Part shown: piece by piece, positions 1 through 8,130 of the stretch | Numbering within the stretch: the stretch's first letter is position 1 | Layout of the letters: each line of letters opens with the position of its first letter | Virus record (IMG/VR): IMGVR_UViG_2654587509_000003 | Coordinates: 1 to 8,130 of that record | Length of the DNA: 8,130 nt | Reading direction: 5' to 3' (one strand) | Origin: a virus | Lineage: Duplodnaviria; Heunggongvirae; Uroviricota; Caudoviricetes | Translations under genes and position numbers: made by a program | Notes under the pieces: generated by a model | Database searches by the model: none | What the model saw: only the letters and a program-made list of their open reading frames with translations | Told to the model about the DNA's origin: nothing

Positions 1-202
1 AAGCAGAAAAAGCTTATTATGCTTCCATCAGAAACGATGATCTGGCAGCCTGAGTTCACAGATAAAACACTCTCCAGGAAAACCGGGGCGGTTCAGTGTG
101 CATCGTTTTGATTATTCCCGCACACTCGCGCAGAAGGAATTCCCCGTCGGGCTACGGTCATGGTTAATGCGGGAATACGGCGACGATACAGCGCATAATG
201 TG

Positions 203-820
203 TCAGGCTTGAATACCTTTATCGAATCCCGGTAATAAAAACTGTCCCTGTCTCTCCAGACGTTCCAGCTTTGCAAGCAATTGAGGTTTTTTCGTTCTCC
301 CCCAGCGATTGAGCAGACGGCCTGACATGCTGGCGACATCCTTCTCTTTCATGTACTCCAGCATTACGGCGTTACGTTCTGCTTCATAACTTTCGCTGTA
401 CTTACGGAGTTCTGCTGACATCCAGTTAAACGCATTGATATAGGCTTCTTTAACAGCATCGGCTTTTGCCCCGTTAAATCCCATAACCAGCATAACGAAG
501 CCACTAAAGTCCATGCGGTAGTAAATCTGTTTCTTGTCAAAAATCCCTAAGTCATTGATTTTCTCGACGGCCCAAAAATGGGTTGTCGAGAATTCCTCAG
601 AACATCTCAAACATTTAATAGCCCTAATCACATGCTGATGGCGTTTACCAAATGCCCTGGCAATCTGGAAGGTGTCAGTTACCGGTTGACCTTCTGCTGC
701 GGTAACTAACTGGCGAAAGTCGAAGTCATGATTCGCAATTAATTCATTCATGGCGTTGCCTGCTTCTTTGAAATGAACCTTTGCCGCACAGGAAACCAGC
801 CCACCGAGGCTCGCCAGCAC
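203..820 (-). CDS. rha: Rha-family phage regulatory protein (antirepressor-like)
   Basis: 205-codon ORF. Motifs TDTFQIARAFGKRHQHVIRAIK and DFSGFVMLVMGFNGAKADAVKEAYINAFNWM match the conserved core of the phage Rha family as I recall it. Start is ambiguous: GTG at 820 with GAGGA upstream, or ATG at 751 (MNELIANHDF...). Confidence 0.7.
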   Translation of the reverse strand: MLASLGGLVSCAAKVHFKEAGNAMNELIANHDFDFRQLVTAAEGQPVTDTFQIARAFGKRHQHVIRAIKCLRCSEEFSTTHFWAVEKINDLGIFDKKQIYYRMDFSGFVMLVMGFNGAKADAVKEAYINAFNWMSAELRKYSESYEAERNAVMLEYMKEKDVASMSGRLLNRWGRTKKPQLLAKLERLERQGQFLLPGFDKGIQA

Positions 821-903
821 TAACTGGTATCCTCAAAGGCCCATTCCAAAGGGTCAGGTTCGGTGTTTATTGTGCGCTGCGGTGCGCGGTGAAATACCGG
901 TAC

Positions 904-932
904 AAAAATGCCCCGCATCTGCGAGGCATTTT
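904..932 (-). terminator. Intrinsic terminator-like hairpin downstream of Rz/Rz1
   Basis: aaaaatgcc-ccgc-atct-gcg-aggcatttt: about 8 bp stem plus 3 bp inner stem with a tetraloop, flanked by an A-run on one side and a T-run on the other (bidirectional-looking). Lies 38 nt past the Rz stop. Confidence 0.4.
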
Positions 933-969
933 CCTGAAAGTCACTTGTTAAATTTCAGTGAAATTAAAA

Positions 970-1407
970 TTATTTTAAGCACTGCGTCCTGATGTATTCC
1001 TGCAGGTAGTTAACCTGCGCGGTTATCTTGTCGATTCCACCTCGGAGACGGTAATAATTGAGTTCAGCATCTGCTGTAAGCCCTGGGCTTTCTCCATCGC
1101 CCATGCTGCTGGTTCCGGTCGTTGACTTTGCACAGGTGGCGGAGACTTGCAGGCGCTTACGACCAGCAGAAACATCGGCACGGAGACTTTCGATAGTCGC
1201 GTTAGCATCAGCAAGTTCCTTTGTATATCTTGCGTCGAGTTCTGCTACATCACGTTGACGCTTCTGCATATCAGCGATGATGGATGTGGCTTTATCGCGC
1301 TGCTCTTTGTAGGCGATGGCGTTATCACGGTAATGATTAACAGCCCATGACAGGCAGAGGATGATGCAAATAACCAGAGCGGAGATAATCGCGGTTACCC
1401 TGCTCAT
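970..1407 (-). CDS. Rz: Rz i-spanin (inner-membrane spanin subunit)
   Basis: N-terminus [30 protein letters not shown] closely resembles lambda Rz as recalled (N-terminal TM, then charged coiled-coil-like region). The ATG at 1407 overlaps the endolysin stop (ATGA). The track's start at 1419 is an upstream GTG extension. Confidence 0.85.
1023..1214 (-). CDS. Rz1: Rz1 o-spanin lipoprotein, embedded out of frame within Rz
   Basis: 63-codon ORF in the +1 frame inside Rz. Signal peptide with lipobox (LLVVSAC) followed by a Pro-rich mature region ([16 protein letters not shown]), which is the classic embedded Rz1 architecture. Confidence 0.75.
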
Positions 1408-1901
1408 TGCTGCCCCCACAAACAGACTTCACGCTCAATATCACGACGGGTCATCAGCCCTTTCCATTGCTTACCGCCAGCGTATGTCCAGCGACGTAGC
1501 TGGTCACATGCGCCTTTGATATCACCCTGGTTTATTTTGCGAAGAAGCGTCGATGTTCTGAAATTACCAGCGCCCACGTTGTAAACGAACGAGTAAAGAG
1601 CGCCGCGCGTTGTTTCCGGTATATCGACTTTGATGTACGGGTTAATTTGTCTGGCGACCGTGGCAAGGTCTTTATTCAGGAGGGCTTTGCATTCTGCTTC
1701 GGTATACGTTTTACCGGGAATGATGTCTTTTCCGGTGTGTCCGTGACATACAGTCCATACGCCAACGATATCTTCGTATGGTATGTAGCTGACACCTTCC
1801 AGGCCATCGTCACCACTCGGACCAGTGATGAGCACAGACGCTATGGCAACAGCCCCACCACCAATAGCAGCAGCAACAGCCTTGCGTAATGATGGCGACA
1901 T
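1404..1901 (-). CDS. R: SAR endolysin (phage lysozyme, R21 / RrrD-like)
   Basis: 165 aa. N-terminal Gly/Ala-rich weakly hydrophobic signal-anchor-release segment ([20 protein letters not shown]), then a lysozyme core with E...D...T spacing ([24 protein letters not shown]). Near-identical to the DLP12/P21-type lysozyme as I recall it. AGGTG Shine-Dalgarno; start overlaps the holin stop (TAATG). Confidence 0.9.
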
Positions 1902-2116
1902 TATTCACCTCTCGCAGCCTTACGCTTATCTTCTTTAATCTTGAAATAAAGGTTTGTCAGATACGTCAGCAAGCCAAACACCAGGCTACCCAATACGCCT
2001 ATTGCCACCCACTGGGATGGGGAGACTTTGTCCAGCAACTGCAGTAGCCAGTATCCCGTCCCCACCGCTGACGTGGTGTATGACACACCTGTTGTGATTT
2101 TTTCCATCTGGTACAT
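1901..2116 (-). CDS. S: Class II pinholin (S21-like) with dual-start motif
   Basis: 71 aa, [71 protein letters not shown]. Two TM segments and a charged C-terminus. Met1-Tyr-Gln-Met4 gives the antiholin/holin dual start typical of S21. The track's start at 2161 is an unsupported N-terminal extension. Confidence 0.85.
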
Positions 2117-2295
2117 ACCCCGTCTCCCGTTATCCGGAAGCTGACAACAATAAAAAGCCACCAGTTAATTCCTGATGGCCCTGATGCATAAACGTCATAA
2201 TACCTGACTGTTATGATTGACAATAATGATAATGTTTATATAGAAAGGTCCCCGATGTGTGTTACATATCATTTCTCCACGGGGAATATCCCCAC

Positions 2296-2346
2296 GCCAG
2301 CGCAGACTCTTTTACCCGTTCTCTTCTGCGCTGGCTCTTTTTTATT
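2296..2346 (+). terminator. Plus-strand intrinsic terminator (11-bp GC-rich stem, then TCTTTTTTATT)
   Basis: gccagcgcaga (2296-2306) pairs perfectly with tctgcgctggc (2325-2335) around an 18-nt loop, followed by tcttttttatt. The U-tract is only on the plus strand. A GGGGA-ata-TCCCC hairpin sits just upstream (2281-2293). Confidence 0.45.
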
Positions 2347-2524
2347 ATGCTGCTGCATTTACCTCTGGCACCAGGCTTTCTATCTCAACACAATACGTGG
2401 TACTTCTTGTAACCAATATCATAACGATTAATCGACATAGAATTTCTCCCGTGTACAGGAACAGAGTTAAAAAGCCGGAACCGGAATCAAATCACAGGAT
2501 GACCATCTGCCAGTGGCAGGTCAT

Positions 2525-2551
2525 AAAAAAAAGGCCGCGCCATGCGCAGCC
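2525..2551 (-). terminator. Strong minus-strand intrinsic terminator between the cargo gene and the holin
   Basis: Minus-strand RNA 5'-GGCUGCGC-AUG-GCGCGGCC-UUUUUUUU: 8-bp GC-rich stem with one G.U pair, 3-nt loop, then 8 U (plus-strand A-run 2525-2532). Confidence 0.55.
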
Positions 2552-2981
2552 AGAACTCACAAGGAAAATGATAGAAGGAAATAACATTAGTGATGTACGC
2601 ATGGCGCCTCCCGCTAAGTTCTGCAATGATCAAACAGAACTCGCTACGTGCCCTTAAAACTCGATCATTTAGCCCCTCCAAGGAGGATTCACCATGCGGT
2701 TGGTTTTTTAATAAACAGTAAACAAAAAAGTCAAGAATTATTCATTCTGTTCTTTCATCATCGGCCACAGCAATACCACAATGCCGCAGACCAGAGCGCC
2801 ATCAGTCAGTACCAACATTATCCTGCTGGTGAAATCCATCATCACCATCACTAAAAGCAGGATCACAACAGCAAGCAGACACAGTTTATAAAACAATGTT
2901 CAGAAAACGCATTCAGCATGCCTAAGGTTCTATTCCTACGAATAGCCAACTTGCAACTTAAAATATTATTTATGCAGCCAA

Positions 2982-3740
2982 TTAAATTCTGGTCCTTACA
3001 ATATCAACCTGAAGATTCTTATCTTGTGCTGATTGATAAATGACAAACCTTTTACTACCTGCATTGAAAGAAGTAGACAAAACCAGACAATTATCATAAC
3101 GAGCAAGAACATAATACCAACCATCATTATAATTAATCATTTCATATTCTTTCTTAAACTGCGGTTTGTAATATCCTGTCAGAAATGAAAAAAGCCAGAA
3201 ATATGCCACAAAAGCAATCATCACAATCTCAAAAAAATGTTTTTTTATAAATGGCTTATCATAGAAGCATGATACCGATAAAAATCGCCCATAAGATCTT
3301 ATCGAAATTGTAACCGCCAGCGCAATCGCTGCTGACAGTAGCAAAAGAGGTACCTGAATCTTCTGTCTCAATATAGAAAACTCAATAATTGCCGGCACAA
3401 ACAATAATTCCACAGCAAAATAAAGGCGAAATACATTTAGCTCTTGCATAGAATGTTTTCTTTTCACTGCGAAAAAGAATACAACACCAATACCCCAACC
3501 GATAAGAAATATAGCAATGACGATAACTGCAAAAAATAAACTTCTGGCAACATCATCAACACCTGCACCTACAATCCACCATGGGAAGCCGTAGTAAAAA
3601 GAAGTACCCCATCCATAGAAATAAGCACTCCCCCATCCAAGGCATCCCATGTAGGCAATAAAAAGTGAAGAACTCCTGAGCAGCGCACCATCCTTCATAA
3701 CCACCCCAATACAAGATGATAACATTGGCTTACAACTCAT
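2982..3740 (-). CDS. Hypothetical polytopic membrane protein, AT-rich cargo (moron) gene
   Basis: 252-codon ORF. The likely true start is ATG at 3698 (MKDGALL..., preceded by GGGGTGG); the ATG at 3740 has no Shine-Dalgarno. About 5-6 hydrophobic helices and a hydrophilic C-terminal tail of about 50 aa. Hand-counted GC of sample stretches is about 30-35%, against about 55% in rusA. No family recognised. Confidence 0.7.
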   Translation of the reverse strand: MSCKPMLSSCIGVVMKDGALLRSSSLFIAYMGCLGWGSAYFYGWGTSFYYGFPWWIVGAGVDDVARSLFFAVIVIAIFLIGWGIGVVFFFAVKRKHSMQELNVFRLYFAVELLFVPAIIEFSILRQKIQVPLLLLSAAIALAVTISIRSYGRFLSVSCFYDKPFIKKHFFEIVMIAFVAYFWLFSFLTGYYKPQFKKEYEMINYNDGWYYVLARYDNCLVLSTSFNAGSKRFVIYQSAQDKNLQVDIVRTRI

Positions 3741-3836
3741 AACAAAAGCAATTCAATGCCGTCAAGAGGTTACAGGCTAAAAAACTCTATTACATAGCAG
3801 CCAGCATGTTTACCGTACAAGTACAACTCAGGGCAT

Positions 3837-3860
3837 AAAAAAAACCCACTCGGCAGCGGG
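3837..3860 (-). terminator. Intrinsic terminator about 50 nt downstream of the Q stop (candidate tR')
   Basis: Minus-strand RNA 5'-CCCGCU-GCCG-AGUGGG-UUUUUUUU: 6-bp stem with one G.U pair, tetraloop, then 8 U (plus-strand A-run 3837-3844). Confidence 0.55.
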
Positions 3861-3908
3861 TTTATACATTTTTTACAACATACCAAATTTGCATGAAGTA
3901 TATGGCTT

Positions 3909-4598
3909 TTAATCCAGTTTTGCAATATTTTGCTGTAAAAATGCTGCCTTTTGTTTTGAACGTGTTCTCGTCACAAGCAATAAAGCATCACTATCAAGCT
4001 GTAGAAAAATGTGCTTCATTGCAACCCAGCGTTCAGTAAATGTCTCGGACCAGTTTTTTGTTGTCACTCCCACCAATGATGCCAGTGTCTGGTATTCATA
4101 GGCCTCACGCCCTGCAAGTTCGCTCTTCACATCCTGTGCAGCCAGCCAGATTAACGTCTTCAGGCGATCCAGTGTCTTACCTGCAATTTTTCTGTTACTT
4201 AACAAATCTTTAAACTCGCTCCATGCCCATTGCGTTATGGTGACCTGATGCCCCCATCGAACGCTTTCGCTGTAACACCAAAGCAACCATGCTTTCTGAT
4301 GTTCATCGAGAGACAAAACCGCGCGGCGCCATGAAGAGGTTGAGAATTCAACCGGGCTGACCAAAGCAATGGATGAACCTTTTGCGTACGACTGCTTACC
4401 GGAAGTCGGCGTATTATCCAGCGTAATCATCTTGCCAGTTACCACATCCAGAATGTGCGGCTTCTTTCGTTTGTATGTACCAGTATCAAATTGTGCATGC
4501 TCCTGCCAGGCTTCGAGCTGGCCTTTCGTTGCTCCGTTCAAGTCAGCAGTAGCTGCCATAAGTTGCTCACGAACATACTGTAAATATTGGGTATTCAT
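3909..4598 (-). CDS. Late-gene antitermination protein Q (QuuQ-like)
   Basis: 229 aa from ATG 4598 (MNTQYLQYVREQL...) with AAGGA 8 nt upstream. Sits between the rusA/ylcG block and the lysis genes, the canonical Q position, and resembles the E. coli Qin-prophage Q as I recall it. The track's longer ORF to 4682 overlaps ylcG and is an artefactual extension. Confidence 0.65.
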   Translation of the reverse strand: MNTQYLQYVREQLMAATADLNGATKGQLEAWQEHAQFDTGTYKRKKPHILDVVTGKMITLDNTPTSGKQSYAKGSSIALVSPVEFSTSSWRRAVLSLDEHQKAWLLWCYSESVRWGHQVTITQWAWSEFKDLLSNRKIAGKTLDRLKTLIWLAAQDVKSELAGREAYEYQTLASLVGVTTKNWSETFTERWVAMKHIFLQLDSDALLLVTRTRSKQKAAFLQQNIAKLD

Positions 4599-4612
4599 GC
4601 AGTAAATCCTTT

Positions 4613-4735
4613 CTATATTTTGGCATAATTCTTCAACATTCGGTAATCGTTCAAAACCGAATCGGGGAAACGACATAAGCACAGGAGCCCCCAGCGACAG
4701 CGAAGGAGTTCTGATATATAAGACTCAAACATCAT
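4613..4735 (-). CDS. ylcG: Small YlcG-like protein (40 aa)
   Basis: Translated by hand; not in the ORF track. [43 protein letters not shown] overlaps the rusA stop (ATGA). Resembles DLP12 YlcG in position and motif as recalled. Confidence 0.5.
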
Positions 4736-5094
4736 TCATCTCCCAGTTCAGTGATGGTCAGTTCCAGCTTCCCACCTTTGGTAACAGGCATCTTCACAAC
4801 GCGGTAATCAACGACCAGCTCATCATCCAGCCAGAAACCTGCTTTAGTGAGTGCGTCAAAAGCGGCTTTTTGCAGATTATCCTGGTCACGGCGACGGCGA
4901 TCCGGCATGTGGCACTCAATGCGGATTTTCACAGGCATAGCCAGACCGATATCCAGCATTGAGCCTTTAATGATTCGGGCGACGTTATCACGGTATGCCT
5001 GCCCTTCTGCGCTGATGTGCGTGCGCCCGCGATTATGCCTGTAGTAGCGGTTATTGCTCGGCGGCCAGGGTAGTGTGATGTGGTAAGTATTCAC
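4732..5094 (-). CDS. rusA: RusA Holliday-junction resolvase
   Basis: [43 protein letters not shown]...[31 protein letters not shown] is near-identical to E. coli RusA as recalled. GTG start at 5094 overlaps the ybcO stop (GTGA). The track's start at 5157 is an extension. Confidence 0.9.
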
Positions 5095-5381
5095 GCCTTG
5101 ATTACCCCCTCTTTCAGCCAGATAACCTGCGTTCTCGCCATACCTTCCAGCGAGCATTCTTTTGCGTACTCAGCATCGACAAAATGCGTGCGGCGGTCGA
5201 TTTCGTCGTGACAGGCAGAACAGGCAATGGTGGCAATAAGGTCTGGCGGTTTAATACCGGTACCGCACAATCCAGTCAGCCGGATATGTGCCAGTACAGA
5301 CGTTTCAGGGTTGCCATTACATACGCCAGGGATTCTTACCTGGCATTCCCGACCACGCGCTGCTTTTCTCAAATCAGCCAT
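5091..5381 (-). CDS. ybcO: YbcO-like DUF1364 protein (putative Zn-binding nuclease)
   Basis: [42 protein letters not shown]... with Cys/His clusters. Start ATG 5381 is preceded by AGGAGGA embedded in the ninE 3' end. The track's start at 5420 is an extension. Confidence 0.8.
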
Positions 5382-5544
5382 GACTCCTCCTTGCTGCCAG
5401 TCGCAACCATTTTTTATCAACCAGGCTGGCGGTATATCCGAGCAGTGTTGGTATTTCGGAAGGCTTCAGCTCAGGTTTACGCTTACGACGATTTGGTACT
5501 CTGTAAATGTGCCCGTTCATGACACGAATAAGCGGTGTAGCCAT
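5374..5544 (-). CDS. ninE: NinE (56 aa)
   Basis: Translated by hand; below the ORF track's length cut-off. [59 protein letters not shown] overlaps the ybcN stop (TAATG) and the stop overlaps the ybcO start. Confidence 0.8.
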   Translation of the reverse strand: MATPLIRVMNGHIYRVPNRRKRKPELKPSEIPTLLGYTASLVDKKWLRLAARRSHG

Positions 5545-5999
5545 TACGCCTCCTGCTTGTCGCGCAGCAGCTGGAACTCGCAGCTCGGCGGAATAGTCAG
5601 GTGGCAGCCAATATTCATCGCCCAGGCTTCAACCTTACACAGGAAGACATACATCTCTCCGGTATCAAGATCGGAGGTATGGCGTAACGACTGGATAGTG
5701 GTGATATCACCGGTTACGACATCAACCAGGTCTTTGGTTTCATAACCGAGATATGTGTGTTTGAGAGCATCTTTTACCCAAGCTGGAGTGGCGAACGTTT
5801 TACCCCTGCTGATGAGGTATTCACTGATTTCGCTGTACCACATGTGGCTGAGTGCATTCTGGGAAAGACTGCGTCTCTCGCGCCACGGTTTAAGCACCAT
5901 GCGAAAGCATTTGCCTTCCTCCAGATAAGGCTGGATCTGCTGACCGATAGCAGTGAAGTTACCACGATGCAATTTGATGCCGTCTTGTGGGAGGTTCAC
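5544..5999 (-). CDS. ybcN: NinB-family recombination protein (YbcN-like)
   Basis: 151 aa. The [23 protein letters not shown] core resembles the lambda NinB / DLP12 YbcN family. GTG start at 5999 with GGAGG 7 nt upstream. Confidence 0.85.
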
Positions 6000-6030
6000 G
6001 CTTCACCTCCGCAGAGGTCAAACGCTGGAT

Positions 6031-6132
6031 GCAAAAAATCGCAGGTGCATCTCTGCATCTGTGAAGGGAGAAGAGAGTTTGGATTGTATGTGCGCATAAA
6101 CGTCCCCGTTTAGCGCAGAAGTCACCGGAGTT
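6031..6132. repeat. Direct repeat copy A (~102 bp), immediately upstream of ybcN
   Basis: Aligned by eye to 7965-8066: 96 of 102 positions identical. Weaker similarity continues about 35 bp further right. Contains the TGCA-GNRA-TGCA mini-hairpin and a GGAG...CTCC hairpin. Confidence 0.85.
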
Positions 6133-6193
6133 GTTCAAGCTCCAATGGCATGATTATGGCTGGTTGATTATTGGAAATCAAATGTGCTGAAAA

Positions 6194-6703
6194 TTAGTCT
6201 GCCAAGTCTTCCTCAGTCGCAACTGGGTAATTCCAAATATCAAAAAAAGCTATAGCCTCCTGCCATTTGCTCCATAAGTTATCAAGTACTTGTGTAGGTT
6301 CCGTACTTTTAAAAACAGAATCAGCCGCATCACCGTTATGAACTTCCTCGTACAGTTCCATTATTAGCAGATTAACAAAGTACTGTTTCAACATTAATGC
6401 CTGATTACCTTCTTTCTGCTGGCTATCCTGCTTGATGATCTCCATCGCCCGTACTAGGCACCTGATGATATCCGCTGCATCATTAACGCTCCATTCAGAT
6501 CCGCGCTTATCTTTAGCTGATGAATTGGCTCTCTCAGCGCAAGCCTTTAAAGACTCATAAAGGTAAACTCTATTTTGTAGCTGCAGCGCTTTTTTTGACG
6601 TGTACCAACTTGCAAGCGCCGATCCCGCTGCGGCTAATGTGCCAAACGCAGAAATGCCTGCTGCTATTGCACTTAAGTCGGCACTGTCAAAGTTCCACAT
6701 CAT
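6194..6703 (-). CDS. Hypothetical membrane-anchored protein (169 aa), orphan
   Basis: ATG 6703 with AAGGTG 8 nt upstream. One N-terminal hydrophobic helix (LSAIAAGISAFGTLAAAGSALASWY), then a charged, probably helical soluble domain. GC about 36-38% by hand count. A terminator lies upstream (6879-6919) with an AT-rich promoter-like stretch between. Confidence 0.7.
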   Translation of the reverse strand: MMWNFDSADLSAIAAGISAFGTLAAAGSALASWYTSKKALQLQNRVYLYESLKACAERANSSAKDKRGSEWSVNDAADIIRCLVRAMEIIKQDSQQKEGNQALMLKQYFVNLLIMELYEEVHNGDAADSVFKSTEPTQVLDNLWSKWQEAIAFFDIWNYPVATEEDLAD

Positions 6704-6878
6704 CGTTACACCTTATATAAACACCCCTCAGTAATATCCAATAAGGTATGTGAACAATCAATATAATTTATATCCGTATCGGCACATAGCGATTTTAATG
6801 CTACTGATAATGGTATCTTTTAGATTATATCGTCCAGTTCCAGTACCCGTATTTTATGAAATGGACTCGCACATTACC

Positions 6879-6919
6879 AAAAAAAATGCCAGCACTTCCG
6901 TCATCGCAGAATGCTGGCA
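6879..6919 (-). terminator. Intrinsic terminator just downstream of the Bro-N-like gene
   Basis: tgccagca (6887-6894) pairs with tgctggca (6912-6919) as an 8-bp stem around a 17-nt loop; on the minus strand it is followed by 8 U (plus-strand A-run 6879-6886). Starts 20 nt past the gene's stop. Confidence 0.5.
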
Positions 6920-6938
6920 GTATTTCTAACTAGTGACT

Positions 6939-7547
6939 TTATTGCAACAGATTCTGACGGAAATATGGTAACACACGACTCCACTTATCATCCTGCCACG
7001 GTTGGAATTTTACATGCGCCGTTTCTCTGGCAAGGGTTTCTCGCGCCCTGTTGAGTATCCGAGGATATTCTTGTTCGATTGAAGTGAATCTACCTGCTTC
7101 GCGATGCTCTGCGACCTGAAGAAGGGGCGTAACGTTCTGGCAGGCGGTTAACATCGTATCACTTGCTCGCCATAACCAGGAGAGTGTGCAAAGTTCGTTA
7201 TCAGTGAATTGTTTTGTGATTGGGGATTGTTGAACTTCTCGATCGAGAATATCCAGAACCCAGCGGCGGAATTCTTTGGCCACAGGAGTACGAGCAAACA
7301 TGGCGATCAAATGGGCTCCGCGAAGGCTAAATACTCGAGACTCCTGCATTCCACGAGGGGTGGTCACTTTGACCACCCTTGTCATCATATCTGTGAATTC
7401 ATCTGAGTGCCGAGAGTAAATGCGCTGAACTGCTTTATCGTCCGCATATTCCAGTGCTAAACCAACTTCAGTGGCAGTAAGCCAAATTCTGTTATTGTGG
7501 CAAATCGGGGTAAACGTCGTTTTGTGGAATGCTAATTGAGTAGTCAT
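6939..7547 (-). CDS. Bro-N / antirepressor-like DNA-binding domain protein (Roi/Ant-like) with uncharacterised C-terminal domain
   Basis: 202 aa. N-terminal NNRIWLTATEVGLALEYADDKAVQRIY...RVFSLRGAHLIAMFARTPVAKEFRRWVLDIL fits the Bro-N / ORF6N-type pattern as recalled. GAGGTG Shine-Dalgarno before ATG 7547. GC about 55%. Confidence 0.6.
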   Translation of the reverse strand: MTTQLAFHKTTFTPICHNNRIWLTATEVGLALEYADDKAVQRIYSRHSDEFTDMMTRVVKVTTPRGMQESRVFSLRGAHLIAMFARTPVAKEFRRWVLDILDREVQQSPITKQFTDNELCTLSWLWRASDTMLTACQNVTPLLQVAEHREAGRFTSIEQEYPRILNRARETLARETAHVKFQPWQDDKWSRVLPYFRQNLLQ

Positions 7548-7571
7548 AGTATCACCTCATCAGGTTAACCA

Positions 7572-7604
7572 TCACCACCAACGACGCCAATCGACTGGTG
7601 GTGA
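7572..7604 (-). promoter_or_regulatory. Perfect 9-bp inverted repeat (TCACCACCA-N15-TGGTGGTGA) in the upstream/5' region of the Bro-N-like gene
   Basis: Seen directly. Could be a protein operator or a 5'-UTR hairpin. No U-tract follows, so it is not a terminator. Confidence 0.3.
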
Positions 7605-7703
7605 ACTGTGTAAGGTTGGCGTAACCGGCTACTCAAACCCGGCGCTTCCGAAGAAGCCCTCACACAGCCCACCATAATTTGGGCATAGCCGTGCTTAGCG
7701 CAC

Positions 7704-7724
7704 AAAAAAACCGCTTAACGCGGT
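7704..7724 (-). terminator. Modest intrinsic terminator (tR-like) upstream of the Bro-N-like gene
   Basis: Minus-strand RNA ACCGC-GUUAA-GCGGU followed by 7 U (plus-strand A-run 7704-7710). Confidence 0.4.
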
Positions 7725-7810
7725 ATGCGTTGAGTAGTATCCCGGGACGCCAATCCCGTGTGCCGATTTTGCGGCAACGCACAGAATATAGCGCCGGATA
7801 AATCATGTCG

Positions 7811-8059
7811 TCAACCCCAGTAAATGGACACCATGATGATCACAGCCATAGCTGCTACAACAGTTACAACTACCTCAGGCCAAAACATAACGATTTCCAT
7901 ATCACCTTTAGCCGCCAGACGAATAGAGACTCCCAATTCTGGCTGTCGAAGTAAAACACCGAATGTAAAAAATCGTAGGTGCATTTCTGCATCTGTGAAT
8001 GGAGATGAGAGTTTGGATTGTGTGTGCGCATAAACGTCCCCGTTTAGCGCAGAAGTCAC
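7811..8059 (-). CDS. Hypothetical small protein (82 aa) with hydrophobic C-terminal segment; N-terminus encoded by repeat copy B
   Basis: GTG start inside the repeat. C-terminal MEIVMFWPEVVVTVVAAMAVIIMVSIYWG looks like a TM helix. No obvious Shine-Dalgarno, so coding status is uncertain. Confidence 0.3.
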   Translation of the reverse strand: MTSALNGDVYAHTQSKLSSPFTDAEMHLRFFTFGVLLRQPELGVSIRLAAKGDMEIVMFWPEVVVTVVAAMAVIIMVSIYWG

Positions 8060-8066
8060 CGGAGTT
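7965..8066. repeat. Direct repeat copy B (~102 bp)
   Basis: Partner of 6031-6132. The six differences are at repeat positions 2, 12, 21, 36, 41 and 58. Confidence 0.85.
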
Positions 8067-8130
8067 TTTTAGGCTCCGATGACAACATTATGGCTTTTTT
8101 ATTTCTAAATTCAAAACTTGAAAATATTAA

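Follow-up and report, generated by a model that had tools for sequence, protein, structure and literature searches.

An orphan tciB-like DUF3927 gene upstream of the PasD1 small RNA gene in a lambdoid prophage

The tciB gene of bacteriophage P1 (YP_006541) belongs to the tciA-tciB-tciC operon, with the tciB ATG overlapping the tciA stop codon (TGATG) and with tciC and then a tRNA downstream of tciB. The properties attached to these genes, i.e. tellurite resistance, colicin resistance and cell-division inhibition, are labels given by homology, and they come from the likeness of tciA to terB. The literature yielded no functional information on DUF3927 or TciB: DUF3927 was mentioned once, incidentally, and TciB occurred as a by-homology label where P1-like plasmids were described. 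We found neither an experiment on a TciB protein nor direct evidence that any member of the family is translated. A second described element is PasD1 of EPEC E2348/69, a Northern-validated and Hfq-bound sRNA whose coordinates, probe and seed are given in tables S6/S7 and fig. S5 of the original report (PMC8550237). PasD has further been linked to STnc100, as a diverged relative, in a study that makes no mention of DUF3927 (bioRxiv 10.64898/2026.05.13.724894).

Here we analysed a locus in which homologues of both elements are neighbours. The window, i.e. the whole stretch of 8,130 nucleotides (positions 1 to 8,130 of IMG/VR virus record IMGVR_UViG_2654587509_000003), is a segment of a lambdoid prophage whose minus-strand gene order is nin region, Q, membrane protein, tciB-like gene, holin, SAR endolysin, Rz and Rha. 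The original prediction had pointed to a 36-codon minus-strand ORF in this region, described as an unannotated hydrophobic peptide matching no named small protein. That a genuine small hydrophobic coding gene lies in the accessory (moron) region between the antiterminator gene Q and the lysis genes was borne out. We assign a probability of about 80 % to the reading that this ORF represents the 3' two-thirds of a tciB-like DUF3927 gene of 52 codons, which stands here as an orphan without tciA and is probably weakly translated. The features concerned are the following.

2982 to 3740, minus strand: polytopic membrane-protein gene, 252 codons from ATG 3740 (RefSeq start 3725, 247 aa)
2897 to 2981, minus strand: spacer of 85 nt between the membrane-protein gene and the tciB-like ORF
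2738 to 2896, minus strand: tciB-like DUF3927 ORF, 52 codons from TTG 2896 to TAA 2740-2738, product (M/L)FYKLCLLAVVILLLVMVMMDFTSRIMLVLTDGALVCGIVVLLWPMMKEQNE
2738 to 2848, minus strand: sub-ORF of the original prediction, 36 codons from ATG 2848, with further in-frame ATGs at 2842, 2839 and 2818
2729 to 2734, minus strand: -35-like TTGACT, read from the sequence, starting 4 nt past the tciB stop (3 nt between)
2525 to 2697, minus strand: PasD1 sRNA gene, 173 nt, 173/173 identical to PasD1 of EPEC E2348/69 (NC_011601 1060260-1060432)
2525 to 2551, minus strand: PasD1 intrinsic terminator (stem 2551-2533, T run 2532-2525)

The 52-aa product matched Pfam DUF3927 (PF13064) with 53.0 bits (E = 3.4e-14) against a cut-off of 25 bits, and PHROG 1470 "TciB-like" with 63.4 bits. 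The 36-aa form gave 51 bits (E = 1.2e-13) with the same Pfam model, i.e. 51 of the 53 bits lie in the last 36 residues. These Pfam matches exclude a chance origin of the ORF, whose length by itself is uninformative since the window contains 120 ORFs of at least 25 aa. The gene thus proved to be a member of the DUF3927/TciB family, and it was already annotated: its RefSeq entry is WP_000499454.1 ('DUF3927 family protein', 159 nt), which also begins at this TTG, and the curated annotation of phage 434 names the gene TciB (CPT_434_69). The exact 52-aa protein, named 'DUF3927 family protein', occurs on 995 or more public contigs, and the 36-aa form has also been deposited by some annotation pipelines (82 contigs). 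Of 5,426 complete E. coli genomes, 706 contained a match to the 901 bases around the ORF, usually with an identity of at least 99 %; in 678 of these 706 genomes, the match extended over at least 80 % of the 901-base length. At the protein level, a HMMER pass over 1.84 billion representatives yielded 75 clusters (50 % identity) at E <= 1e-3, nearly all of 50-60 aa, and a genome-contig profile scan with a narrower alignment yielded 7 loci. NCBIfam gave no useful hits, and PADLOC gave none for TciB, TciA or the membrane protein.

Family members are phage-borne proteins of ~50-55 aa with a shared anatomy: the N-terminus is basic (K/R-x-R) and leads into a first hydrophobic segment, which a conserved polar stripe (D21-F-T-S24...S28...D32-G33) separates from a second one; the latter ends in W-P and is followed by K48 and a short basic/polar tail. 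D21 is invariant and D32 near-invariant in the family. Both are kept in the window protein, in which D21-F-T-S24, D32-G33, W44-P45 and K48 are all present. It also carries K4 and a ~16-residue hydrophobic segment before DFTS, which are missing from the 36- and 26-aa forms. Two positions depart from the family, C6 and L28 (R6C, S28L), R6 and S28 being conserved at 90 % or more in an alignment of 11 diverse sequences; S28 is kept in other orphan alleles. As D21, S24, S28 and D32 are spaced i+3/4, they would share one helical face. AlphaFold2 (14-sequence alignment) returned a single long helix with pLDDT 78 and pTM 0.42, a confidence at which a hairpin and a continuous helix are not discriminated. 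The basic termini, considered together with the positive-inside rule, would favour an N-in/C-in topology.

The normal state of the TciB family is a coupled pair with a TerB-like protein. In P1, Pollock (N4-like), LMessi, Evi and Klebsiella phage 5, the gene immediately preceding tciB is a TerB-like tciA (~141-149 aa), and the arrangement recurs in prophages of Enterobacter, Pseudescherichia and Pantoea; in some E. coli prophages, the tciA directly upstream of tciB is 5'-damaged. In all of the 11 distinct tciA-linked start regions, the ATG or GTG of tciB overlaps or abuts the tciA stop codon (GTGA, TGATG, TAATG, TAAATG), and the anti-SD duplex energies of these starts range from -3.1 to -6.4 kcal/mol. 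Orphan-type copies have a TTG start (3/3) and duplex energies of +0.2 to +0.4 kcal/mol. At TTG 2896 the value is +0.4 kcal/mol, with neither a Shine-Dalgarno nor an upstream ORF for coupling. No TciA-like sequence was detected in the window or in window-type loci (tblastn, five TciA proteins against the window), and the membrane-protein gene stands in the place of tciA in this lineage. A resemblance between 'GMLNAFSEH' and 'GVLGLRLENH' 5' of the TTG was considered as a tciA remnant and discarded as insignificant. The orphan reading is drawn from the absence of tciA, the TTG start without Shine-Dalgarno or coupling ORF, and the two substitutions R6C and S28L.

The N-terminus of the window-type allele begins MFYKLCLL... 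One locus, L109 (872-1668), is a mosaic in which a truncated tciA (residues 7-135) is followed by ~240 nt and then by an orphan-type spacer and an MFYKL-type tciB, and proteins P0023 and P0024 are in-frame chimeras of both N-terminal types; together, they indicate recombination within and beside tciB. In phage Pollock (L098 2555-2907), a group I intron (101 bits) was observed ~450 nt 3' of the tciAB pair.

In P1, Pollock and lambdoid phages, tciB would normally be translated through coupling to the upstream TerB-like tciA. We propose tentatively, and at somewhat less than even odds, that TciB may be an integral protein of the inner membrane to which its soluble partner, the TerB-like TciA, docks or by which it is organised there; its one-sided acidic/hydroxyl stripe could then be an interaction or ion-binding face. 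The orphan copy would be transcribed at a low level, either jointly with the gene before it or as part of the late transcript that depends on Q, and would be translated weakly if at all. Its close fit against the promoter region of PasD1, a highly expressed gene, may be part of the reason why it persists. A role as small membrane-protein regulator, as first suggested for the shorter peptide, is conceivable.

Selection was assessed by comparing the window copy with coupled and orphan homologues. Purifying selection on coupled tciB homologues is clear (pN/pS 0.1-0.3). Codons 17-48 of the window copy gave ~0.3-0.4 against all relatives and codons 2-16 gave ~1.1-1.3 against the coupled type, the changes in the latter being hydrophobic-for-hydrophobic. 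Among orphans, the window differs from the L104 copy by one synonymous and five non-synonymous changes (Y3C, L5P, M19I, S24R, M46I), of which Y3C, L5P and S24R are non-conservative, and from an E. albertii orphan over codons 1-16 by three synonymous and no non-synonymous changes; the second half of that E. albertii orphan has been rebuilt through repeat expansion. Over the N-terminal codons of orphans in three lineages, four changes are synonymous and two non-synonymous (one-sided P ~0.06, our own binomial estimate). This N-terminal synonymous excess would argue that the complete 52-aa protein continues to be produced and to be of importance, i.e. that it is not vestigial; the selection signal within orphans is mixed.

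Frame-preserving conservation in related prophages had been put forward as a check on the ORF: all of the 80 IMG/VR copies found in a viral-contig scan are intact, and many indels in tciB are in frame (+6, +9, +12, +21, +24 nt), but frameshifted variants do occur, if rarely. The 80 copies are near-clonal, with only two synonymous variants, so their intactness has little weight. Orphan copies are intact in hundreds of genomes; here again intactness says little, since an identity of 99 % or more over the 901 nt was seen for 518 of 711 E. coli records. Frameshifted or rebuilt variants include P0073, P0028 and the repeat variants of E. albertii. In the latter (L108 1100-1273; P0030, P0048, P0066, P0071), in-frame tandem expansions of LEAGGWR (x1-3) and CGIVGLWD (x1-3) put charged residues inside what is elsewhere the second hydrophobic segment.

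EPEC RNA levels were also considered. The RNA-seq baseMean is 226 for the membrane gene, 36.7 for the tciB homologue E2348C_0687, 3.5 for the holin gene and 11,017 for pasD2. The tciB mRNA thus lies ~300-fold below PasD2; its per-nucleotide coverage is similar to that of the upstream membrane gene and above that of Q or the lysis genes.

These data bear first on whether the ORF is a relic, i.e. no longer functional and carried as a passenger between the moron gene and the PasD1 promoter on prophage DNA that has recently spread. The loss of the partner gene, of the Shine-Dalgarno and of the ATG/GTG start, the substitutions R6C and S28L at conserved positions, the low abundance of the tciB mRNA relative to PasD2, the near-identity of most E. 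coli records and the existence of frameshifted or rebuilt variants (P0073, P0028, E. albertii repeats) all fit such a relic. Against it stand the three-to-zero ratio of synonymous to non-synonymous N-terminal changes between the E. coli and E. albertii orphans, the many in-frame indels and the retention of D21 and D32, and we regard it as rather unlikely.

The position of the start codon was examined on the minus strand, where 2848 to 2738 reads ATG GTG ATG ATG GAT TTC ... GAA TAA and yields the 36-codon peptide MVMMDFTSRIMLVLTDGALVCGIVVLLWPMMKEQNE. The predicted ORF and its internal ATG 2818 are therefore present, but their delimitation did not stand. The tciB-like frame is open from TTG 2896 and closed upstream by an in-frame TGA at 2902-2900, and the 16 codons before ATG 2848 encode a second hydrophobic segment, which is a conserved part of the family; the protein consequently has two hydrophobic segments and not the single TM-like helix first described. 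The family reading is ~52 aa with an N-terminal hydrophobic segment, and P1 TciB has no Met at the place of the 36- and 26-aa starts.

The internal ATGs are placed no better than TTG 2896. At ATG 2848 there is no Shine-Dalgarno complementarity (+0.6 kcal/mol). At ATG 2842/2839 the complementarity is weak (-3.9 kcal/mol), provided by GGTGAT just 5', and the spacing is too short. It is also weak at ATG 2818 (-4.1 kcal/mol), again with too short a spacing of 2 nt: the AGGA reported 4 nt before this ATG lies at 2824-2821, and the actual gap of 2 nt (TA) is too near for a normal Shine-Dalgarno site. Within this stretch, a GTGATG-GTGATG-ATG repeat at 2837-2851 (minus strand) encodes V-M-V-M-M, and homologues show in-frame copy-number variants of it of +6/+9 nt (MVMMMM, VVMVVMV; proteins P0011 and P0062).

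An internal start would give a shorter single-segment peptide of 33-36 aa (ATG 2848/2842/2839) or 26 aa (ATG 2818) that might act as a small membrane regulator. Several observations point in this direction: the poor initiation context of TTG 2896, the GGTGAT element just 5' of ATG 2842/2839, the Met residues found at 17 and 20 in the orphan lineage where coupled homologues have Val (MVMM vs VVMV), the deposition of the 36-aa form by some pipelines and the concentration of the Pfam score in the last 36 residues. However, the Shine-Dalgarno-like elements are only 0-2 nt from the internal ATGs, the 16 upstream codons are open, hydrophobic and mostly synonymously variable in orphans, and Met is absent there from P1 TciB and from most of the family, which makes the long form the family protein. 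We therefore consider an internal start unlikely, and the 52-codon reading from TTG 2896 is the best supported.

The upstream membrane protein was then compared with the databases. It belongs to PHROG 1521, a function-unknown family, with an alignment from residue 31 only; identical-length neighbours bear the precomputed Pfam label PF27470 'TfpB', a name for which a literature search gave nothing relevant. The start candidates of its gene are ATG 3740 (252 aa), the RefSeq start 3725 (247 aa) and that of an older EPEC annotation (717 nt), and a promoter-like TTGTTA-18-TATCAT with TG occurs at 3745-3716. Further upstream, a weak STnc240 match (E = 0.62) at 3833-3902 (minus strand) coincides with a terminator-like hairpin at 3863-3842, just 3' of Q, and may correspond to a short pR' leader/tR' transcript. 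Neither a remnant of TciA coding sequence nor a promoter-like site or Shine-Dalgarno is present in the 85-nt spacer (2897 to 2981).

A new partnership, in which orphan TciB and the 247-aa membrane protein would form a two-gene membrane module (e.g. for superinfection exclusion), is suggested by the constant position of the MFYKL-type tciB allele behind the membrane-protein gene or its 3' end, and by the similar per-nucleotide RNA-seq coverage of both genes in EPEC, above that of the Q/lysis genes. This linkage may nevertheless reflect a single inherited recombination event, the genes are separated by 85 nt without translational coupling, and neither protein fits a family or defence-system model (no PADLOC hits), so that such a module appears improbable.

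On the downstream side, the orphan tciB gene is followed at 40 nt, on the same strand, by the start of PasD1. In addition to the full identity with the EPEC sRNA, the seed UGUGAG is found at 2561-2556 and the published probe sequence is present. The Rfam STnc100 model (RF02076) matched 2522-2727 over its full length with 37.5 bits, below its gathering score of 47, a sub-threshold value that fits the published view of PasD as a diverged STnc100 relative. The terminator at 2525-2551 is present as predicted, with its hairpin and T run, but it belongs to the PasD1 sRNA and not to a protein 'cargo unit'. The TTGACT at 2729 to 2734 is a candidate PasD1 promoter element, and in the other C-terminal allele (GCTTGATTT) it overlaps the tciB stop. 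Among promoter candidates, neither TTGACT 2734-2729 with its poor -10 nor AATAAT 2742-2737, which lacks a -35, allowed a firm call.

A full-scoring STnc100 lies directly 3' of tciB in Evi and L084 and begins 66 nt 3' of it in L097, from which we conclude that the order tciA, tciB, STnc100/PasD is a conserved lambdoid module. In the PasD/STnc100 literature examined, we did not find this order pointed out for E. coli lambdoid phages. It is quite improbable that the tciB ORF and PasD1 make up one 'small protein plus sRNA' unit, with the sRNA made from or co-regulated with the tciB transcript (a -35-like hexamer abuts or overlaps the tciB stop in both alleles), or that the orphan TciB is retained because it now acts with the adjacent 247-aa membrane protein.

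Other RNA features were recorded in the window. An Esr41-like sRNA at ~2252-2345 (plus strand) scored 32 bits with Rfam Esr41, below the gathering score of 102, and contains the conserved CAUUUCUCCACGGGG core; a TTGACA hexamer is found at 2217-2222, and the terminator consists of a stem (2298-2337) and a U run that extends to 2345. In EPEC RIL-seq data, the hub site assigned to 'E2348C_1013' (e.g. 263 chimeras with the entC 5'UTR) corresponds exactly to 2303-2344 (plus strand). A RefSeq 'hypothetical protein', WP_012578864.1 (132 aa, 2259-2657, plus strand), overlaps the Esr41-like sRNA and is antisense to PasD1; it lacked support from Pfam, PHROG and NCBIfam and probably reflects a false gene prediction. 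C4 antisense RNA (74.8 bits) and isrK (58.7 bits) were matched at 7594-7791 (minus strand), along with a c4 a1/b1 target element whose 39.6 bits remained under its gathering score; the group resembles the immI-type antirepressor control regions of P1, P7 and Gifsy.

The suggestion of a type I toxin, i.e. a stand-alone toxic membrane peptide under antisense RNA control, for which the small size (<~60 aa), strong hydrophobicity and charged tail of the peptide and the sRNA-rich prophage region speak, is hardly credible. The homologues are second genes of a coupled tciAB operon and not stand-alone loci. Promoter-like sites were absent both from the plus strand over or near 2738-2896 and from the 85-nt spacer. 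The search for an antisense RNA found none over the ORF, nor did any toxin-antitoxin RNA family of Rfam (Sok, Sib, IstR, Rdl, SymR etc.) match at E <= 1 in the whole window, and the neighbouring sRNAs are clear of the ORF (PasD1 on the same strand 3', the Esr41-like RNA ending at 2345, 390 nt off).

With PasD1 published and the tciB-like gene catalogued as DUF3927/TciB, the locus is ordinary and not new; what is mildly new is that the arrangement of tciB before an sRNA gene is conserved and that the commonest allele in E. coli is an orphan. While the family normally forms a coupled pair, this common prophage allele is an orphan without partner or initiation signals, which calls for caution in moving the 'tellurite/colicin resistance' label onto it. 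Additionally, tciB is a conserved upstream neighbour of the STnc100/PasD virulence-associated prophage sRNAs, and as such helps to define the sRNA loci and their promoters.

Compared with known systems, the window copy is closest to its own E. coli counterparts. WP_000499454.1 is identical to the window protein, and WP_000499456.1, phage 434 TciB (CPT_434_69) and EPEC E2348C_0687 are identical to it or differ by one residue. These loci share the same neighbours, i.e. Q, the 247-aa membrane protein, tciB and PasD. After PasD, phages 434 and 2B8 and the EPEC prophage PP2 carry a sialate O-acetylesterase gene, whereas the window and EPEC PP4 carry the holin gene.

P1 TciB belongs to the same Pfam and PHROG families and is of similar length (54 vs 52 aa), and both genes are phage accessory genes. 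By tblastn, the two proteins aligned only over residues 21-48 (~61 % identity). P1 TciB is nevertheless collinear with the window protein from end to end (MVIKARLILALVFLVLSVLVDFTSTILSVLSDGALVAVAVTLVWPILKTASKDQ), including the 20 residues before DFTS, and the two share K4, the 20-residue N-terminal segment, D32-G33, W-P and K48. The window copy differs from the P1 gene in lacking both tciA and tciC, in its TTG start and in the sRNA gene next to it on the 3' side.

TciB resembles the type I toxins (Hok, Ldr, TisB, Ibs, ShoB, Zor, DinQ) in being shorter than 60 aa and strongly hydrophobic. It differs from them in its operonic arrangement with tciA, its two hydrophobic segments, its conserved acidic residues and the lack of a detected antisense RNA.

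Finally, AcrZ, MgrB, MgtS and KdpF are small inner-membrane modulators with one transmembrane helix, encoded in the chromosomal core genome. We found no sequence relationship between TciB and these four proteins; the likeness is one of size (~50 aa or smaller) and, by analogy, of a mode of action in which TciB, like them, would probably act by binding a larger partner.
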